This document shows, piece by piece, positions 7,650 through 29,359 of a stretch of DNA of 44,193 nucleotides; the first letter of the stretch is position 1; each line of letters starts with the position of its first letter. The notes under the pieces were generated by a model. The model had not been told where the DNA came from, ran no database searches, and saw nothing but the letters and a program-made list of their open reading frames with translations. The DNA lies in the IMG/VR virus record IMGVR_UViG_3300045988_058447, positions 1 to 44,193 of that record; one strand, 5' to 3'. This DNA comes from a virus. The translations under genes were made by a program, and so were the position numbers.

Positions 7650-8655
7650 CGTTTGCCATCTTACGATCTGCTAAAATGTCGTCACAGATGTAATATTTTT
7701 CCGTGACTGCTGTGTTTGCATGCCCCAGTCTGTGCGATACATATAAAATATCCTTTGTTCGGAGATATTCCCTAGATGCAAACGTCTTACGATAGACATG
7801 CACTGTGGCAACATTCCGGCATCCGGCACGCTCTGCGATCTCTTTCGCGATTTCTTCGATTGTTGCCTTACACAGCAGTTTCCCGGTTTCCACATTCCGG
7901 CTATTGAGGAATATATATCCTTCTTTTCTGCCATTTACATACTGTTCCAAGGCTACCCGACAATCCGGTGTCATAAAGCAAGTACGCCATTTACTGCTCT
8001 TTTCTCCGTAAATCTGGATTTCCCCACGTTCAAAGTCCAGATTTTCAATCTTAAGGTTACAGATCTCTCCCACACGAGGACCGGCACTAAGCATCAGTTC
8101 CAGAAGTGCTTTTTCACGCAAAGTCTTTAAGACGTTCTTGCATTTAGACACTTCATAATCAGATAAGCGTTTCTTGCGCTTCTGCGGGATTTTGATCTTG
8201 TCAATATCCCAGTATATGTCCTTGTCGATATGGTGTTTCCGGTACGCCCACTTGACAAATGCGGATAAACATTTCTGAATATTTCCGGCGTATGACTTCG
8301 AGATCTTGTCCCGATACTGCCTTATGGCAATATAATCCATTACGTCCTGTCCGGTCATAACGGCATAATGAAGTCCAGTTTCATTAAAGAATTTCTTTAA
8401 TGTGTACAGGTACATTTCAATCGTTTTCTCTTTCCTGCCGACTGCGATCAGATCAACGTGATATCTGCCGAGAATCCATTCATTATCCCTTACGTCCGTG
8501 GTTGGCAGCGTTTCGTCCGGCACCAAATGAAAACCTTTCATGCGATACGCAAGTGCTGTTTTCAAGCGTTCCGTCCCTTCGGCATCCAGATAACCAGTCA
8601 TGTCATATATAAGATCATTCACAAATTCTCCCTTTGTCATATAACTACCCTCCAA
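7642..8655 (-). CDS. Tyrosine recombinase (XerC/D / phage integrase family), second copy in the genome
   Basis: 337 aa with GPRVGEICNLK (Arg I), HVYRKTF (H-x-x-R) and LGHANTAVTEKYY (His...Tyr nucleophile). Confidence 0.8.
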   Translation of the reverse strand: MEGSYMTKGEFVNDLIYDMTGYLDAEGTERLKTALAYRMKGFHLVPDETLPTTDVRDNEWILGRYHVDLIAVGRKEKTIEMYLYTLKKFFNETGLHYAVMTGQDVMDYIAIRQYRDKISKSYAGNIQKCLSAFVKWAYRKHHIDKDIYWDIDKIKIPQKRKKRLSDYEVSKCKNVLKTLREKALLELMLSAGPRVGEICNLKIENLDFERGEIQIYGEKSSKWRTCFMTPDCRVALEQYVNGRKEGYIFLNSRNVETGKLLCKATIEEIAKEIAERAGCRNVATVHVYRKTFASREYLRTKDILYVSHRLGHANTAVTEKYYICDDILADRKMANVA

Positions 8656-24972: not shown

Positions 24973-25395
24973 ATGTATGAAATATTTGAAAAGCTATGCA
25001 AGGAAAAAGGCATAACACCGTATCGTTTTTGCAAAGATACTGGAATTAATTCATCTACAATAAGTACATGGAAAAATAAAGGTTCTGAATGCTCTGCAAA
25101 AACGGCAAAGGCAATATGCGAATACTTCAATGTAACAATGGACTATCTAATGACAGGGGGAACACAAATAGATGATCCTTATGCCATTACTGCATCGGAT
25201 GAAAGAGATATTGCCAAAGACATGGAAAATATGCGCAACAAATTATTAGATGAATCTGCTGGTCCACTATCCTATGACGGAGAACCGATACCAAAAGATG
25301 ATGCCGAGTTGCTGCTCGGACAAATAGAATTGATGATGCGCAAATTGAAACCGATCAATAAAGAAAAATATAATCCTAACAAAAACAAAAAGTAG
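24973..25395 (+). CDS. XRE-family repressor (CI-like)
   Basis: KLCKEKGITPYRFCKDTGINSSTISTWKNKGSECSAKTAKAICEYFNVTMDYLM. Confidence 0.8.
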   Translation: MYEIFEKLCKEKGITPYRFCKDTGINSSTISTWKNKGSECSAKTAKAICEYFNVTMDYLMTGGTQIDDPYAITASDERDIAKDMENMRNKLLDESAGPLSYDGEPIPKDDAELLLGQIELMMRKLKPINKEKYNPNKNKK

Positions 25396-25406
25396 GTGTT
25401 ACATAA

Positions 25407-25844
25407 TTGAGAAAAGACATAAAACAGTTAGTCAATTATTATGTAAGAAAATTTAATACCAGAAATCCATATGATCTTGCAAAAAGCCTAAATGTAGAGG
25501 TTCAAATTGGAGAGCTTGGCAGTCGCGCTGGATGTTATATGTTCCTAAAAAACCATAAATGCGTATTTCTGAACGAAGATCTGGAAGAAAATGAAATGCG
25601 GCTCGTAATGGCTCATGAGCTTGCACACTCGATTATGCACAGGAAAGAGAATTGTTACTTTATAAGAAACAAAACTTTGCTGCTCACATCCAAGATGGAA
25701 ATTGAAGCAAATACATTTGCCGCTGAGCTACTTATACCGGACGAATTGATTTTAGAAAATCCAGGCATATCGGCAGATCAGATAGCAAGAATCGCTGGAT
25801 ATGATAAAAAAATCATGAATTTTAAAAATAAAATCTTGATTTAG
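25407..25844 (+). CDS. ImmA/IrrE-family metallopeptidase (anti-repressor protease)
   Basis: HEXXH motif MAHELAHSIMH, TTG start, immediately downstream of the repressor. Confidence 0.75.
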   Translation: MRKDIKQLVNYYVRKFNTRNPYDLAKSLNVEVQIGELGSRAGCYMFLKNHKCVFLNEDLEENEMRLVMAHELAHSIMHRKENCYFIRNKTLLLTSKMEIEANTFAAELLIPDELILENPGISADQIARIAGYDKKIMNFKNKILI

Positions 25845-25855
25845 GGAGAACAATT

Positions 25856-27040
25856 ATGTTTTTTGATAAAATCTTGAATTTTTTCAAAATAGAGAATCTA
25901 TACAAAGAATCTGATTTTAGAGACTCTCATTTTCAATCAAATAACATTAAGTGTGATAATACTGCTCATCAAACAGAAAATTATATTGGTCCTGCCTCAA
26001 CTCATGAGCATGTTATGGAAATACTGTCTTATTGGAGTCAACATCAATATCAAAAAGTTAATTATAATTACTATCGAGAAGCTTCTTCTTCTGAAAAACA
26101 AGAATATGCTCTGATAGATATATTATCCTGTTTTTCAAAAGGGGCTCGCAATTTACATAGCTTTTCGCAAAACAGGTTGCATGATCTCGGGATTATCAAT
26201 TTTGACTCCTATACTCAGTTCTTGATTTCAGAAAAATATATTATGCGGGCGGATATAATAAATACACTTATTGCAAAATATAATTCTCAAGAATTAAAAA
26301 CAATAGCCGAAAGTGTAGGAGTAAAAAAGACTGGTAATAAATCCGAATTGGCGCAACGAATTGCAAATGAGCTTTCTTCTTCTGAGGTAAATAGAATACT
26401 CAGTGAAAATCCATTATATATTCTTTCTGAAAAGGGGCATTCTTACCTTGCAGCAAATGAAGATTATGTGCCACTACATAAATATTTATATTTGATTTCA
26501 CTCGCAGAATTTAATGATAACAGAATACCTAATGGCGGACGATACCACCGGAACTTTTATGACACAATGTTTCAGATTTTAACAAATAGGAAGTTCTTTT
26601 TTGAACGCCATAGGGACTTCGAAGATGTTGGTTCAATATCTTTACAACTATACAATATGCTAATTGAAGAATCAAAGAAAACAACCAACAATGTTCCTGC
26701 CGATGTTATATCAACTAACTACGTTGAAAATTTGTATATACAAACGTGTTTTTGTTTTCACGCATATAGCTCGTTGGAGCATGGCGTTTTCCCCAGTTCT
26801 TACAACAGTTATATTGTTCCAAAGCCAAATAAAGATACCGAAAAATTAGCAAGCCAAGAACCTTATATAAATTATGAATTGTTATTTATCAATAAACCTC
26901 CAAGTTTCTTTACATATAGCGAATTCAAACAATACATCCACGAAATGTTATCTGGTCAAATGTTTGATGGGCAGAAATGGGATTTAAAAATTCAAAATAG
27001 AGTAAGGGAATTTGACAATATGATTAAAGGAGAATACTAA
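25856..27040 (+). CDS. SAP-domain protein of unknown function (lysogeny-module cargo)
   Basis: 394 aa. SAP-like motif ELKTIAESVGVKKTGNKSELAQRIANEL. The DNA is AT-rich by eye. Confidence 0.6.
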   Translation: MFFDKILNFFKIENLYKESDFRDSHFQSNNIKCDNTAHQTENYIGPASTHEHVMEILSYWSQHQYQKVNYNYYREASSSEKQEYALIDILSCFSKGARNLHSFSQNRLHDLGIINFDSYTQFLISEKYIMRADIINTLIAKYNSQELKTIAESVGVKKTGNKSELAQRIANELSSSEVNRILSENPLYILSEKGHSYLAANEDYVPLHKYLYLISLAEFNDNRIPNGGRYHRNFYDTMFQILTNRKFFFERHRDFEDVGSISLQLYNMLIEESKKTTNNVPADVISTNYVENLYIQTCFCFHAYSSLEHGVFPSSYNSYIVPKPNKDTEKLASQEPYINYELLFINKPPSFFTYSEFKQYIHEMLSGQMFDGQKWDLKIQNRVREFDNMIKGEY

Positions 27041-27041
27041 T

Positions 27042-27383
27042 ATGGCACTATTCAAATGTCCAGAATGTGGAGACTTAATTAGTACTGAAACTATTCACTG
27101 CCCCAAATGTGGATATGACGTGCATACATATATGGAAGAAAACGGGGATAAAATTCAGTGCAATCATTGTTGGAAATTAAATACTCCAGGATCAACGCGC
27201 TGCATATATTGTGGAAATAATCTACAATATTCAAATACAGTGCGTCAAGGACTTCCAAAAGATGAAATGAAACAGGAAAAAGTAGAGGAGCATGAAAGAA
27301 AGACTCTTCCACTGATTATAACCGTTGTTATAATTGTTTTATTATTGCTCTGCTTAGTACCAAAAGTTTTTGTAATTGTATAA
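27042..27383 (+). CDS. Double zinc-ribbon protein with a C-terminal membrane anchor
   Basis: CPECG...CPKCG, then CNHC...CIYCG, then LPLIITVVIIVLLLLCLVPKVFVIV. The start is 1 nt after the upstream stop. Confidence 0.6.
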   Translation: MALFKCPECGDLISTETIHCPKCGYDVHTYMEENGDKIQCNHCWKLNTPGSTRCIYCGNNLQYSNTVRQGLPKDEMKQEKVEEHERKTLPLIITVVIIVLLLLCLVPKVFVIV

Positions 27384-27448
27384 TAAAAACCGCCCCGGTG
27401 CTGAAACACCGAGACGGCAAACGTGCTCCGAAGATACACGCCGTGAAC
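27381..27448 (-). ncRNA. Candidate minus-strand sRNA (about 68 nt) between the cargo genes and int
   Basis: Promoter TTGATT (27478..27483) - 17 nt - TGaTACAAT (-10 at 27455..27460). The terminator CCGUCUCGGUG-UUUCAG-CACCGGGGCGG + UUUUUAUUAU pairs fully only in the minus sense (two G-U pairs). Confidence 0.45.
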
Positions 27449-27524
27449 AAGCATATTGTATCATTCGGAGCGCGATAAATCAACTACCGCGCTATTTTTG
27501 CGCCTATTTTTAGGAGGATACAAT

Positions 27525-28610
27525 ATGGCTAAAGCAAAAAAACTACCATCCGGCAAATGGAGAACACAGGTATACGACTACACAGAAGTTTTGCCAGACG
27601 GGAAAAAGAAAAAACATATGCGGTCTTTTACAGCCGATACAAAAAAAGAGTCTGAATACTTGGCATCACAGTTTGCCTTTACTAAAAAATCCACTCCAAC
27701 TACAGCTATGACGCTCATAGAAGGGATTGACAGGTACATAGAAACCTATTTAGAGGTATTATCTGCCACTACTATATCAGGATATAAAACCATCAAGGAT
27801 AACGCCTTTAAAACCGTTATGAATGTTCCGATCAGCAAAATAAACAGCGATATTATGCAACGTGCCATAAACGAAGAGTGTAAAAGAAAATCCGATTCCA
27901 GACGTTGCAAGGGAAAGCCTATCTCTTCCAAAACGGTAGTAAACGAATATGGTCTAATATCCACAGTGATAAAAAAATATTCCCCTGGAACCATATTGGA
28001 TGTAAAACTGCCAACCCCGGCAAAAGTTATACACGACATTTCATCACCGAATGTAATTTTCAACATGGTAAAAGGCACAGAGATTGAATTGCCAGTGTTG
28101 CTTGCAATGTGGTTAAGTTTCACACTGTCGGAAATAAAAGGATTAACCAAGTCCGGATCTATAAAAGGGGATTATATTTTTATAGATCAGGTTACCATTA
28201 CAGTTGATGGGAAAGAAATTGACAAAAAGATTGCAAAGAATGACGCTCGTAACAGAATGTTACTGATGCCGGAATACATTAAAGAACTGATTGACAAAGT
28301 GACTACTGACAGATTGGTTACTCTAAGCGCAAAGGCTGTAGCAAACCGGTTTACTTATATGCTTAAGAAGAATGGTCTACCTCATATGTCTTTCCACGAT
28401 TTGCGGCACGTGAACGCGTCAGTGATGGCAATGCTGAACGTTCCGGACAAATATGCAATGGAACGCGGCGGGTGGAAAACAGATAAGATCATGAAAGGAA
28501 CCTACATGCAGACGTATCGGGCAGAACGAATCGCCGTAGATCAAAAAATAGACGATTATTTCAATAACTTTATCGACAAAAGTTCACACGAAAGTTCACA
28601 CGAAAAATAA
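27525..28610 (+). CDS. int: Tyrosine integrase
   Basis: Starts MAKAKKLPSGKWRTQVYDY after an AGGAGG RBS. HDLRH...GGWKTDKIMKGTYMQTY. Last gene of the lysogeny module, next to attP. Confidence 0.85.
   Translation: MAKAKKLPSGKWRTQVYDYTEVLPDGKKKKHMRSFTADTKKESEYLASQFAFTKKSTPTTAMTLIEGIDRYIETYLEVLSATTISGYKTIKDNAFKTVMNVPISKINSDIMQRAINEECKRKSDSRRCKGKPISSKTVVNEYGLISTVIKKYSPGTILDVKLPTPAKVIHDISSPNVIFNMVKGTEIELPVLLAMWLSFTLSEIKGLTKSGSIKGDYIFIDQVTITVDGKEIDKKIAKNDARNRMLLMPEYIKELIDKVTTDRLVTLSAKAVANRFTYMLKKNGLPHMSFHDLRHVNASVMAMLNVPDKYAMERGGWKTDKIMKGTYMQTYRAERIAVDQKIDDYFNNFIDKSSHESSHEK
28578..28604. repeat. Arm-type repeat A: AAA + 2 x AGTTCACACGAA (inside the int 3' end)
   Basis: Exact 27-bp copy of 28782..28808. 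Confidence 0.9.
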
Positions 28611-28816: not shown

Positions 28817-29359
28817 CTAATTCTTTCCCAAGATTCCGGAAACGATGGCAGCGGCCATCGTCTTGGCATCATACAGTTTCACATCGTCTTTATCATCCAC
28901 GAAGCAGCACTCAATCAGCATTGCCGGCGAATTTGTTCGGTGCAACACATACAGATCAGTCCGGATCTTTACTCCACGGTTTTTGAATCCAAGAGCCGCA
29001 ATGTCTTTAACGACACGTTCTGCCACCGGCTTCGCTGCGCTTTTCTCACTGTACACATACACTTCCGTTCCGGTCGTCTTACCATTGCCTTTCTTATCCC
29101 CGACTCCACAATTAAAATGAATCGAAATATCCAGATCCACCTTGTGCTTGTTGCACTTTGTTACGATCCGCTTCAGGACATCCGTCTGGCTTGTCCCATT
29201 GGTACAGGTGCAATCATACACCTTGTGTCCTTTCTTTCTAAGGAGCCGGATCACTTTTTTCTTGACCTTGCGTGCCTCTGTGGACTCCCTGATGAGTCCA
29301 ACAGCACCGCAGGCGATCTTTCCATCCGGGTTATGCCCGGCATGTACATTGATTTTCAT
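28817..29359 (-). CDS. Endolysin, N-acetylmuramoyl-L-alanine amidase (Amidase_3), with no obvious cell-wall-binding domain
   Basis: MKINVHAGHNPDG...DISIHFN...TGTEVYVYS...LHRTNSPAMLIECCFVDD. Confidence 0.8.
   Translation of the reverse strand: MKINVHAGHNPDGKIACGAVGLIRESTEARKVKKKVIRLLRKKGHKVYDCTCTNGTSQTDVLKRIVTKCNKHKVDLDISIHFNCGVGDKKGNGKTTGTEVYVYSEKSAAKPVAERVVKDIAALGFKNRGVKIRTDLYVLHRTNSPAMLIECCFVDDKDDVKLYDAKTMAAAIVSGILGKN

Follow-up and report, generated by a model that had tools for sequence, protein, structure and literature searches.

A SAP-family gene in the lysogeny-module cargo slot of a putative temperate phage, and its relatives beside the switch genes of other phages

Temperate phages of the Firmicutes carry superinfection-exclusion (Sie) genes between the repressor and the integrase, among them orf203 of Sfi21, Ltp of TP-J34 and the lactococcal Sie2009. 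Those Sie proteins that are known work at the cell surface and are either lipoproteins or small membrane proteins. Here we describe two genes at the same location in IMG/VR virus record IMGVR_UViG_3300045988_058447 (positions 1 to 44,193; this whole stretch of 44,193 nucleotides is referred to as the window), which reads as a temperate phage genome. Gene 1 encodes a SAP-domain protein and gene 2, directly downstream, a small zinc-ribbon protein. Gene 1 shares its genomic position with Sfi21 orf203, Ltp and Sie2009, and presumably co-expression with the repressor in the lysogen, but it has no sequence similarity to them and its 394-residue SAP-domain product is probably largely cytoplasmic. Lipoprotein genes of the Ltp kind occupy the slot next to the SAP gene in related phages.

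The genes upstream recall a second described system, the ImmR/ImmA modules of ICEBs1 and phage phi105. As in those modules, a helix-turn-helix (HTH) repressor gene is followed by a gene for an M78 metallopeptidase with an HExxH motif, in the canonical order upstream of int (Table 1); the resemblance is one of the neighbours, not of genes 1 and 2 themselves. ImmR/ImmA modules as described have no third gene, whereas here a SAP gene follows, and it evolves uncoupled from ImmA and is also found after S24-type repressors.

The reading that we favour, tentatively, is that the window carries two independent cargo genes. Gene 1 would specify a lysogen-expressed, probably membrane-proximal, non-enzymatic DNA binder, most likely concerned with superinfection exclusion or defence, and gene 2 would be a separate zinc-ribbon, tail-anchored cassette. 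Lysogeny-module cargo of temperate Firmicutes phages is already known; what is new is an uncharacterised family with an unusual architecture and a striking conservation of position.

The SAP-family protein and its relatives

Genes 1 and 2 are evidently real genes and not chance open reading frames (ORFs), because both ORFs are kept full-length in other metagenomes. They are co-oriented between the ImmA-like protease gene and int and are AT-rich (GC 31.5% in gene 1, 34.2% in gene 2 and 43.5% in the remaining window), so that the ORF list, base composition and Pfam matches agree on these points with an earlier, sequence-only reading of the window; the entire lysogeny module is AT-rich too (35.5% GC). 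That reading had also placed a SAP-type motif centrally in an otherwise unrecognisable gene 1, and both parts of the description hold. The motif spans residues 146-173 (nt 26291-26374) and appears to be real, though borderline from this sequence alone: gene 1 scores 26.3 bits with SAP_new25 (PF18953), which equals the cut-off, and 20.4 bits with SAP (PF02037), under the cut-off of 23.9. It becomes firm once relatives are added, in that a profile of 23 gene 1 homologues matches the solved SAP domain 2rno (E 2.5e-5), and 42 of 44 distant relatives match PF02037 (best E 9e-14). An AlphaFold2 model places two helices here (residues 144-154 and 162-172), and L147, K148, A151, K158, G160, K162 and R168 are the invariant residues of the domain in the close-homologue alignment. 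Outside SAP, gene 1 has no match in Pfam, NCBIfam, PHROGs or PADLOC, a search of PDB sequences with its profile (E<=10) recovers SAP domains only, and the searches run found no homology of either gene to a known non-defence function.

The AlphaFold2 model of gene 1, built from a 23-sequence alignment, has a pLDDT (mean local confidence) of 85.9 and a pTM (predicted TM-score) of 0.77. Residues 2-46 are of low confidence and consist of a short helix (2-9) followed by a disordered linker; the remainder is nearly all helical, with two short strands. When the model is compared with the PDB by Foldseek, five of the top seven matches are FAN1 and a sixth of the seven is Pseudomonas FAN1, with E values from 1.1e-3, probabilities up to 1.0, 320-360 aligned columns, a TM-score of about 0.24 and about 10% identity. 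The remaining PDB matches are generic TPR or other helical repeats and winged helices of the MarR/PadR type, and a comparison with BFVD recovers four unnamed 'SAP domain' proteins of phages (best TM-score 0.74).

In FAN1 an N-terminal part with SAP is followed by a TPR domain and then by a VRR-nuc nuclease, an architecture that recognises nicked or flapped DNA. As modelled, gene 1 resembles the human and Pseudomonas aeruginosa proteins (9eo1, 4rea, 4ric, 5y7g) in what looks like a SAP motif within a helical N-terminal part followed by TPR-like helical repeats. It differs in having no VRR-nuc nuclease, no UBZ and no conserved catalytic residues, in showing no sequence-level signal (Pfam at E<=1, PDB profile at E<=10), and in being a 394-residue protein of a phage lysogeny module. 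In particular, a Pfam scan at E<=1 finds no VRR_NUC in gene 1, and the model shows only helices in the C-terminal half. The predicted structure thus suggests a resemblance of architecture, with a different domain orientation, and gene 1 is not a member of the FAN1 family.

An enzymatic role was also considered. Two segments, SLAEFNDNR and RNFYDTMFQ, looked catalytic, in the manner of a nuclease or a HEPN-like protein, and the idea was abandoned when they proved to be conserved in the close subfamily only and lost in the wider family. No acidic/lysine set is conserved across the family. Enzymatic activity seems unlikely, because the subfamily motifs are not retained and the only near-invariant positions family-wide are the SAP motif and a few aromatics.

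Gene 1 is a member of a large uncharacterised family. Its close homologues form 33 clusters (37-62% identity), all metagenomic and mostly from the human gut, and the species-representative genomes with gene 1 matches are Lachnospiraceae (Blautia, Eisenbergiella and one unclassified metagenome-assembled genome). At E<=1e-3 an exhaustive profile search recovers 763 clusters of 50% identity, 211 of which have E<=1e-10, and the family core corresponds to residues 78-394 of the window protein (profile-profile comparison, probability 100%, E 3e-49). SAP is the only Pfam annotation of the distant relatives. Half of the distant members match phrog_10777, whose function is not annotated and which is not matched by gene 1 itself, and PADLOC run on 44 distant relatives gives scattered single matches only (E 5e-5 to 5e-3), none of them significant. 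Five members (P0118, P0129, P0135, P0141 and P0185) have a beta-rich N-terminal domain of about 180 residues with the motif ...TTTT.KPG.G.GV..PVTKH.G.GI.RHKVKT..., for which there is no Pfam match in P0118, the sole member scanned.

A membrane theme recurs in this family. Transmembrane segments are present in 17 of the 101 near-full-length representatives. There are N-terminal transmembrane hairpins (P0065, P0066, P0079, P0126 and others), and TM2 domains are found at the N-terminus (P0097, P0089), at the C-terminus (P0143) or inserted past the N-terminal peptide (P0030, the protein of locus L007). Two cluster representatives, P0132 and P0159, have a C-terminal zinc ribbon and transmembrane segment fused to the SAP core. 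About 60 further members start with a short hydrophobic and basic peptide (MGLFxxLKKK, MGFFNLFK, MFFDKILDFFK-like or MRLFDFFKNAFKK); in the window subfamily this is MFFDKILDFFKIENL, after which there is a low-complexity linker. At 0.62, the hydrophobic moment of the gene 1 peptide ranks among the top 4% of windows along its own protein, and half of the family lies in its own top 5%. Membrane anchors recur as fusions to the SAP core, which makes membrane association of the SAP protein plausible, though not by way of gene 2.

MinE, SepF and Noc carry N-terminal amphipathic membrane-targeting helices, and by analogy the N-terminal peptides of the family resemble these. The likeness extends, above all for Noc, to the layout, in which a flexible linker connects a short amphipathic peptide at the N-terminus with a DNA-binding domain, and this suggests a possible bridging of DNA and membrane. 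The fold of gene 1 is unrelated to that of Noc and lacks a ParB domain, and membrane binding is putative here.

Among about 15 distinct Lachnospiraceae phage contexts, the gene 1 homologue lies directly 3' of the repressor gene(s) or ImmA in every one that extends upstream; the spacing from the switch genes is 10-40 nt, and other cargo usually comes after it. Megablast and tblastn of the window proteins against GenBank phages gave no match, and three GenBank phages were reached only with distant family members as query. In Streptococcus phage Javan617 a gene annotated 'SAP domain protein' stands between the integrase and the switch genes, which are Cro/CI and then an ImmA-like gene (HELGH). 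In Latilactobacillus phage TMW 1.46 P2 the family member is preceded, in this order, by a cI-like repressor, an ImmA-like gene and a lipoprotein gene, and is followed by a 375-residue ORF and the integrase. The third, MT835638.1 (L060), is an unverified human-faecal phage sequence with the order repressor, ImmA, family member, integrase. The 289-residue member of L060 (4501-5370) apparently lacks the SAP motif, and it retains the N-terminal MSLFNLLFGKKK peptide, the flanking core and the usual post-ImmA position. In L057-L059 an S24 self-cleaving repressor precedes the family member, which is followed by a lipoprotein gene and DUF3644/EC042_2821, and the member in L013 likewise comes after an S24-type repressor. 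Query P0072 found no match in viral contigs, a homology search with an alignment of distant members, limited to 8000 candidates, gave at least 10 proteins, and the contigs carrying P0132, P0072 and P0135 are short and uninformative for gene context.

One arrangement lies outside a phage switch. In a Blautia producta contig (L052, 3702-11196) the order is serine recombinase, S-adenosylmethionine-dependent (SAM) methyltransferase, SAP-family gene (P0186) and a gene for a 1126-residue UvrD/RQC helicase with a zinc ribbon. The arrangement recurs on at least five contigs and may represent a different mobile element or a defence island.

Possible roles of the SAP-family protein

In the scenario that we tentatively prefer, the host of the window phage would be a member of the Lachnospiraceae, and the repressor gene, immA, the SAP gene and the cassette would make up its lysogeny operon. 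The SAP protein would be made in the lysogen along with the repressor and would sit at the inner membrane face, binding DNA non-enzymatically. It would do so through a core (residues ~78-394) in which the SAP motif, in a helical N-terminal part, is followed by helical repeats as in the non-catalytic SAP/TPR portion of FAN1. The likeliest target would be the incoming or replicating DNA of a superinfecting phage, with exclusion or defence as the result. Such a membrane-proximal DNA binder is proposed because the SAP and helical-repeat core has no catalytic residues and about three quarters of the members have either a transmembrane segment or a short amphipathic N-terminal peptide. Genes 1 and 2 both lie within the module, co-oriented with the repressor and with no intervening terminator-like site, as expected of lysogeny-module cargo, and it is from position, architecture and fusions that expression in the lysogen, membrane localisation of the gene 1 protein, DNA as its ligand and an anti-phage role are proposed.

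Several observations weigh against this scenario. The N-terminal peptide is retained in P0043 and P0046, which also bear transmembrane segments, and the rule used for calling amphipathic peptides is crude; its persistence in these two proteins would also suit a motif for docking to another protein in place of a membrane anchor. The TM-score of the FAN1 matches is low, and the gene 1 protein is acidic overall (pI 6.0) with only a mildly basic SAP segment, which is unlike a strong general DNA binder. Neither window protein is matched by any PADLOC-DB v2 model at E<=1, and a literature search returned nothing on the gene 1 family in prophages, lysogeny modules or phage defence. Lastly, the strict position beside the switch genes could equally mean a regulatory role.

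That regulatory role is the likeliest alternative, although we think it unlikely. Gene 1 would then be an accessory of the lysogeny switch, a third repressor or anti-repressor component that, for example, binds damaged or structured DNA and modulates ImmA/repressor cleavage or the establishment or maintenance of lysogeny. Its favourable points are that the gene is always the first after repressor/ImmA, closely spaced, in phages of different Firmicutes families at only 25-35% identity, and that its architecture is like one with which FAN1 recognises nicked or flapped DNA. However, the SAP gene is associated with three kinds of switch, namely those with a full ImmA, those with a mini-ImmA of 72-86 residues (HExxH) and those with S24 self-cleaving repressors. 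The two proteins are also uncoupled in their identities to those of the window: ImmA and the SAP protein are 86% and 56% identical in L020, 35% and 57% in L001, and without detectable similarity and 41% in L007. Co-evolution of the SAP protein with ImmA was rejected on these values. Moreover, repressor/ImmA-type modules function without any SAP gene in L022-L030, one member lies outside a phage switch beside a methyltransferase and a UvrD/RQC helicase, and in TMW 1.46 P2 a lipoprotein gene separates ImmA from the family member. Because of the uncoupled identities, the several switch types and the modules without a SAP gene, the comparisons indicate that the SAP gene is a mobile accessory gene placed first after the switch genes and not an obligatory component of the switch; a modulatory role in the switch is conceivable.

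The short ORFs that replace a full ImmA and keep an HExxH motif (for example YNHELFHITNGDF) are found in L010 (5780-5998), L021 (5384-5632), L039 (4634-4888) and L046 (4632-4877), and may encode minimal ImmA-like peptidases or be remnants.

Host-directed lysogenic conversion is improbable in our estimation. A membrane-tethered DNA binder would here act on the host nucleoid in the manner of Noc and alter division, sporulation or competence of the lysogen, which fits the parallel of an N-terminal amphipathic peptide joined to a DNA-binding domain, the spore-forming nature of the Lachnospiraceae hosts and the integration of some prophages beside cotJ genes. There is nonetheless no sequence or fold relation to ParB/Noc, and the slot is otherwise filled with exclusion- or defence-type genes.

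We give still less credence to a function on the phage's own DNA at the establishment of lysogeny, with the SAP protein binding the infecting genome (its ends or the int-proximal region) and aiding circularisation or integration. The SAP gene is beside int and co-oriented with it, and the SAP domain of Ku70 sits in a DNA-end-binding protein, but the family occurs with both tyrosine and serine recombinases, differing integrases stand beside an identical SAP gene, and a conserved terminator-like leader separates the SAP gene from int.

Gene 2 and the cargo slot

Gene 2 had been described from the sequence alone as a protein with two CxxC...CxxC ribbons and a C-terminal transmembrane anchor, starting 1 nt after the gene 1 stop, and this description is upheld. 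All eight cysteines (C6/C9...C20/C23 and C40/C43...C54/C57) are invariant in the seven homologue clusters, Pfam matches Zn_ribbon_3 (38 bits) and DZR (33 bits), and the hydrophobic tail occupies residues 89-113. These seven clusters are the only homologues, the closest being 58-73% identical. Gene 2 also matches the start (zinc ribbon and transmembrane segment) of TcaA and of phrog_9700, and thereby resembles the Firmicutes class of proteins with an N-terminal zinc ribbon, a transmembrane segment and an extracellular domain, full-length members of which adjoin the SAP gene in other phages. It differs from that class in stopping just past the transmembrane helix, with no extracellular domain, and in having two ribbons; its match to the TcaA model NF053815 (E 2.4e-9) reaches 36.5 bits against a cut-off of 550 bits and covers profile positions 3-68 of 463, so that it is not a TcaA member. 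Gene 2 thus seems to encode a cytoplasmic double zinc ribbon with a predicted tail anchor, akin to many zinc-ribbon/transmembrane proteins of this slot, and a surface or exclusion function is possible.

The sequence-only reading had further proposed that the two genes form one system, with a sensor and a membrane effector, and had suggested looking at their co-occurrence across prophages. The interval between the SAP gene and int holds the 113-residue gene only where the SAP gene is at least 99% identical (the window, L016-L019 and L033-L036). Elsewhere it holds other, unrelated zinc-ribbon/transmembrane proteins (259 residues with DUF3862 repeats in L005, 313 residues in L010/L037, 191 and 199 residues in L015) or lipoproteins (L001, L021/L048, L039, L057), or is empty (L007, L014, L020, L041, L046), and altogether there are more than ten distinct contexts with the SAP gene and without gene 2. 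Conversely, gene 2 homologues are found without any SAP gene, directly after ImmA in L027-L030, and in L022-L026 after a gene for a 372-residue zinc-ribbon/DUF4352 protein and before Abi_2 or RhuM. The proposed pairing therefore does not stand, there being no co-conservation beyond the near-identical phages, and the PADLOC check suggested alongside it was likewise empty.

L020 DNA aligns with the window to 27021 and resumes at 27380, such that gene 2 is absent by a clean indel. L037 DNA aligns to 27035 and resumes at 27384, and the interval is taken up by the different 313-residue gene. The slot in which gene 2 sits as a cassette therefore runs from the end of the SAP gene to the conserved pre-int leader. 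In L019 (7187-7486), a phage about 99% identical, gene 2 has an in-frame 14-residue deletion that joins the first CxxC of ribbon 1 to sequence past its second CxxC, giving a 99-residue product, and the SAP gene is intact.

The fused proteins P0132 and P0159 were considered as Rosetta-stone support for a pair. Their ribbons share only generic CxxC similarity with gene 2, and zinc-ribbon/transmembrane genes fill the slot in modules without a SAP gene as well, so this support was set aside. A single two-gene anti-phage system, with a SAP nucleic-acid sensor and a membrane-tethered zinc-ribbon effector, is thus very improbable, even though the ORFs are 1 nt apart, move together with immA as a 98.5% identical block between phages that differ in immunity and integrase genes, and have a counterpart in the two fusions, given the narrow co-conservation, the missing or replaced gene 2 of L020 and L037, the damaged ribbon of L019 beside an intact SAP gene, the generic nature of the fused ribbons and the lack of a recognisable effector domain in the 113-residue protein. 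The distribution points to independent cargo genes, of which gene 2 is probably a swappable cassette. Two genes of a prophage cargo slot need not form a system even when they are neighbours only 1 nt apart, because cassettes of this slot are exchanged independently.

That the two genes lie in a lysogeny-module cargo slot, as the earlier reading had it, is supported by the related phages, in which lipoprotein genes as well as Abi_2, RhuM and DUF3644/EC042_2821 are found at this place. The slot, or the region just past int, contains Abi_2, Virulence_RhuM or DUF3644/EC042_2821 at L022 5985-7043, L023 5754-6863 and L057 8347-9324, and L060 has on its minus strand (7482-8513) a 343-residue ORF suspected to be Abi-like. 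From its gene content the slot appears to mark a defence or moron hotspot.

The lysogeny module, its leader and the wider family

Most genes of the window are on the minus strand, apart from a plus-strand lysogeny block (~24973-28610) that is followed by minus-strand lysis genes (Table 1). Gene 1 has the ribosome-binding site (RBS) GGGAGA 6 nt upstream of its start; the gene 2 ATG is 1 nt past the gene 1 TAA, and its RBS, AAGGAGA, lies within the 3' end of gene 1.

Table 1. Features of the window discussed in the text (residues are those of the encoded protein).
Feature	Coordinates	Strand	Basis or remark
Cro/CI-type HTH repressor, 140 residues, first gene of the lysogeny operon (proposed)	24973..25395	+	Pfam HTH_26 41.9 bits, HTH_3 29.2 bits
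ImmA/IrrE-type M78 metallopeptidase, 145 residues, HELAH motif	25407..25844	+	Pfam Peptidase_M78 65.7 bits
SAP-family protein (gene 1), 394 residues	25856..27040	+	ORF, homologue clusters, AlphaFold2 model
Conserved N-terminal amphipathic peptide MFFDKILNFFKIENL, gene 1 residues 1-15; putative membrane-targeting/docking helix	25856..25900	+	close-homologue alignment
SAP domain, gene 1 residues 142-176	26279..26383	+	Pfam SAP_new25/SAP; 2rno profile match
All-helical, helical-repeat-like C-terminal domain, gene 1 residues ~200-394	26453..27037	+	AlphaFold2 secondary structure, Foldseek
Double zinc-ribbon protein with predicted C-terminal transmembrane tail anchor (gene 2), 113 residues	27042..27383	+	Pfam Zn_ribbon_3, DZR
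Gene 2 ribbons	27057-27110 and 27159-27212	+	CxxC pairs
Gene 2 transmembrane segment/hydrophobic tail, residues 89-113	27306-27380	+	hydrophobicity
Structured non-coding leader between cargo slot and int	27384..27524	+	10-phage alignment, RNA folds
Leader hairpin 1	27389-27418	+	RNA fold; T-run on minus strand only
Leader long hairpin	27422-27474	+	includes conserved box CAAGCATATTGTATCATT at 27448-27465
Leader terminator-like hairpin	27469-27493	+	overlaps long hairpin; T-run 27495-27499
Tyrosine integrase, 361 residues	27525..28610	+	Pfam Phage_integrase 26.8 bits (just below 27.1 cut-off), Phage_int_SAM_3; RBS TAGGAGG
Amidase (lysis gene)	28817-29359	-	ORF list

A block of the window (25198-27567) is 98.5% identical to L034 4343-6710 and spans the C-terminal half of the repressor, immA, the SAP gene, gene 2, the leader and the first ~45 nt of int. 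Outside the shared block, the N-terminal (HTH) half of the repressor and the body of the integrase in L016, L019 and L034 differ from those of the window. Because the near-identical block sits between a differing repressor HTH half and a differing integrase body, the alignment indicates that recombination has been modular and that its breakpoints lie within the repressor gene and the integrase gene.

From the repressor gene as far as the gene 2 stop, the plus strand has no terminator-like site. The first hairpin with a T-run on that strand is at 27469-27499, past gene 2 and before int, and because it is only here that a terminator-like hairpin is found, the layout fits a transcript of repressor, immA, SAP gene and cargo that would be separate from that of int. 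Within the 3' end of the repressor gene, shortly before immA, there is a promoter-like site (25345-25374) that matches the consensus at 11 of 12 positions (TTGAAA and TATAAT, spaced by 18 nt); judged by this match, immA, the SAP gene and gene 2 could be transcribed from it without need of the repressor promoter.

The leader is kept in ten phages whose cargo genes are different and whose recombinases are of either the tyrosine or the serine type, with the near-invariant box CAAGCAnATTGTATCATT; counterparts include L020 7262-7400, L001 7930-8070 and L021 7495-7620. Single-sequence folds for four phages have z-scores of -4.7 to -6.7. The leader has no match in Rfam, and RNAalifold found no consensus structure in the int-leader alignment, because indels misalign the hairpins. 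Since the long hairpin overlaps the terminator-like hairpin, the layout looks like a terminator/antiterminator pair, and the leader may be a new cis-regulatory element controlling int.

Exclusion and defence functions abound among prophage genes that are co-expressed with the repressor, and in phages of gut Lachnospiraceae such genes are almost unexplored. The SAP family might be a widespread and previously unrecognised class of Firmicutes prophage proteins, non-enzymatic, membrane-tethered, FAN1-like, nuclease-less DNA binders co-expressed with the repressor, which would intercept foreign phage DNA at the inner membrane face or would act as sensors of DNA structure that feed the lysis-lysogeny switch; we regard this broader view as possible and rather doubtful. 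The family comprises hundreds of 50%-identity clusters with a fixed switch-side position in the sampled Lachnospiraceae, Streptococcus and Latilactobacillus phages, a confident fold and no characterised member, and its size, fixed position and confident fold therefore make it a well-defined target for a simple genetic test. Should the protein turn out to be a DNA trap close to the membrane or a component of the switch, it would represent a new protein class in phage-phage competition or in the control of lysogeny.

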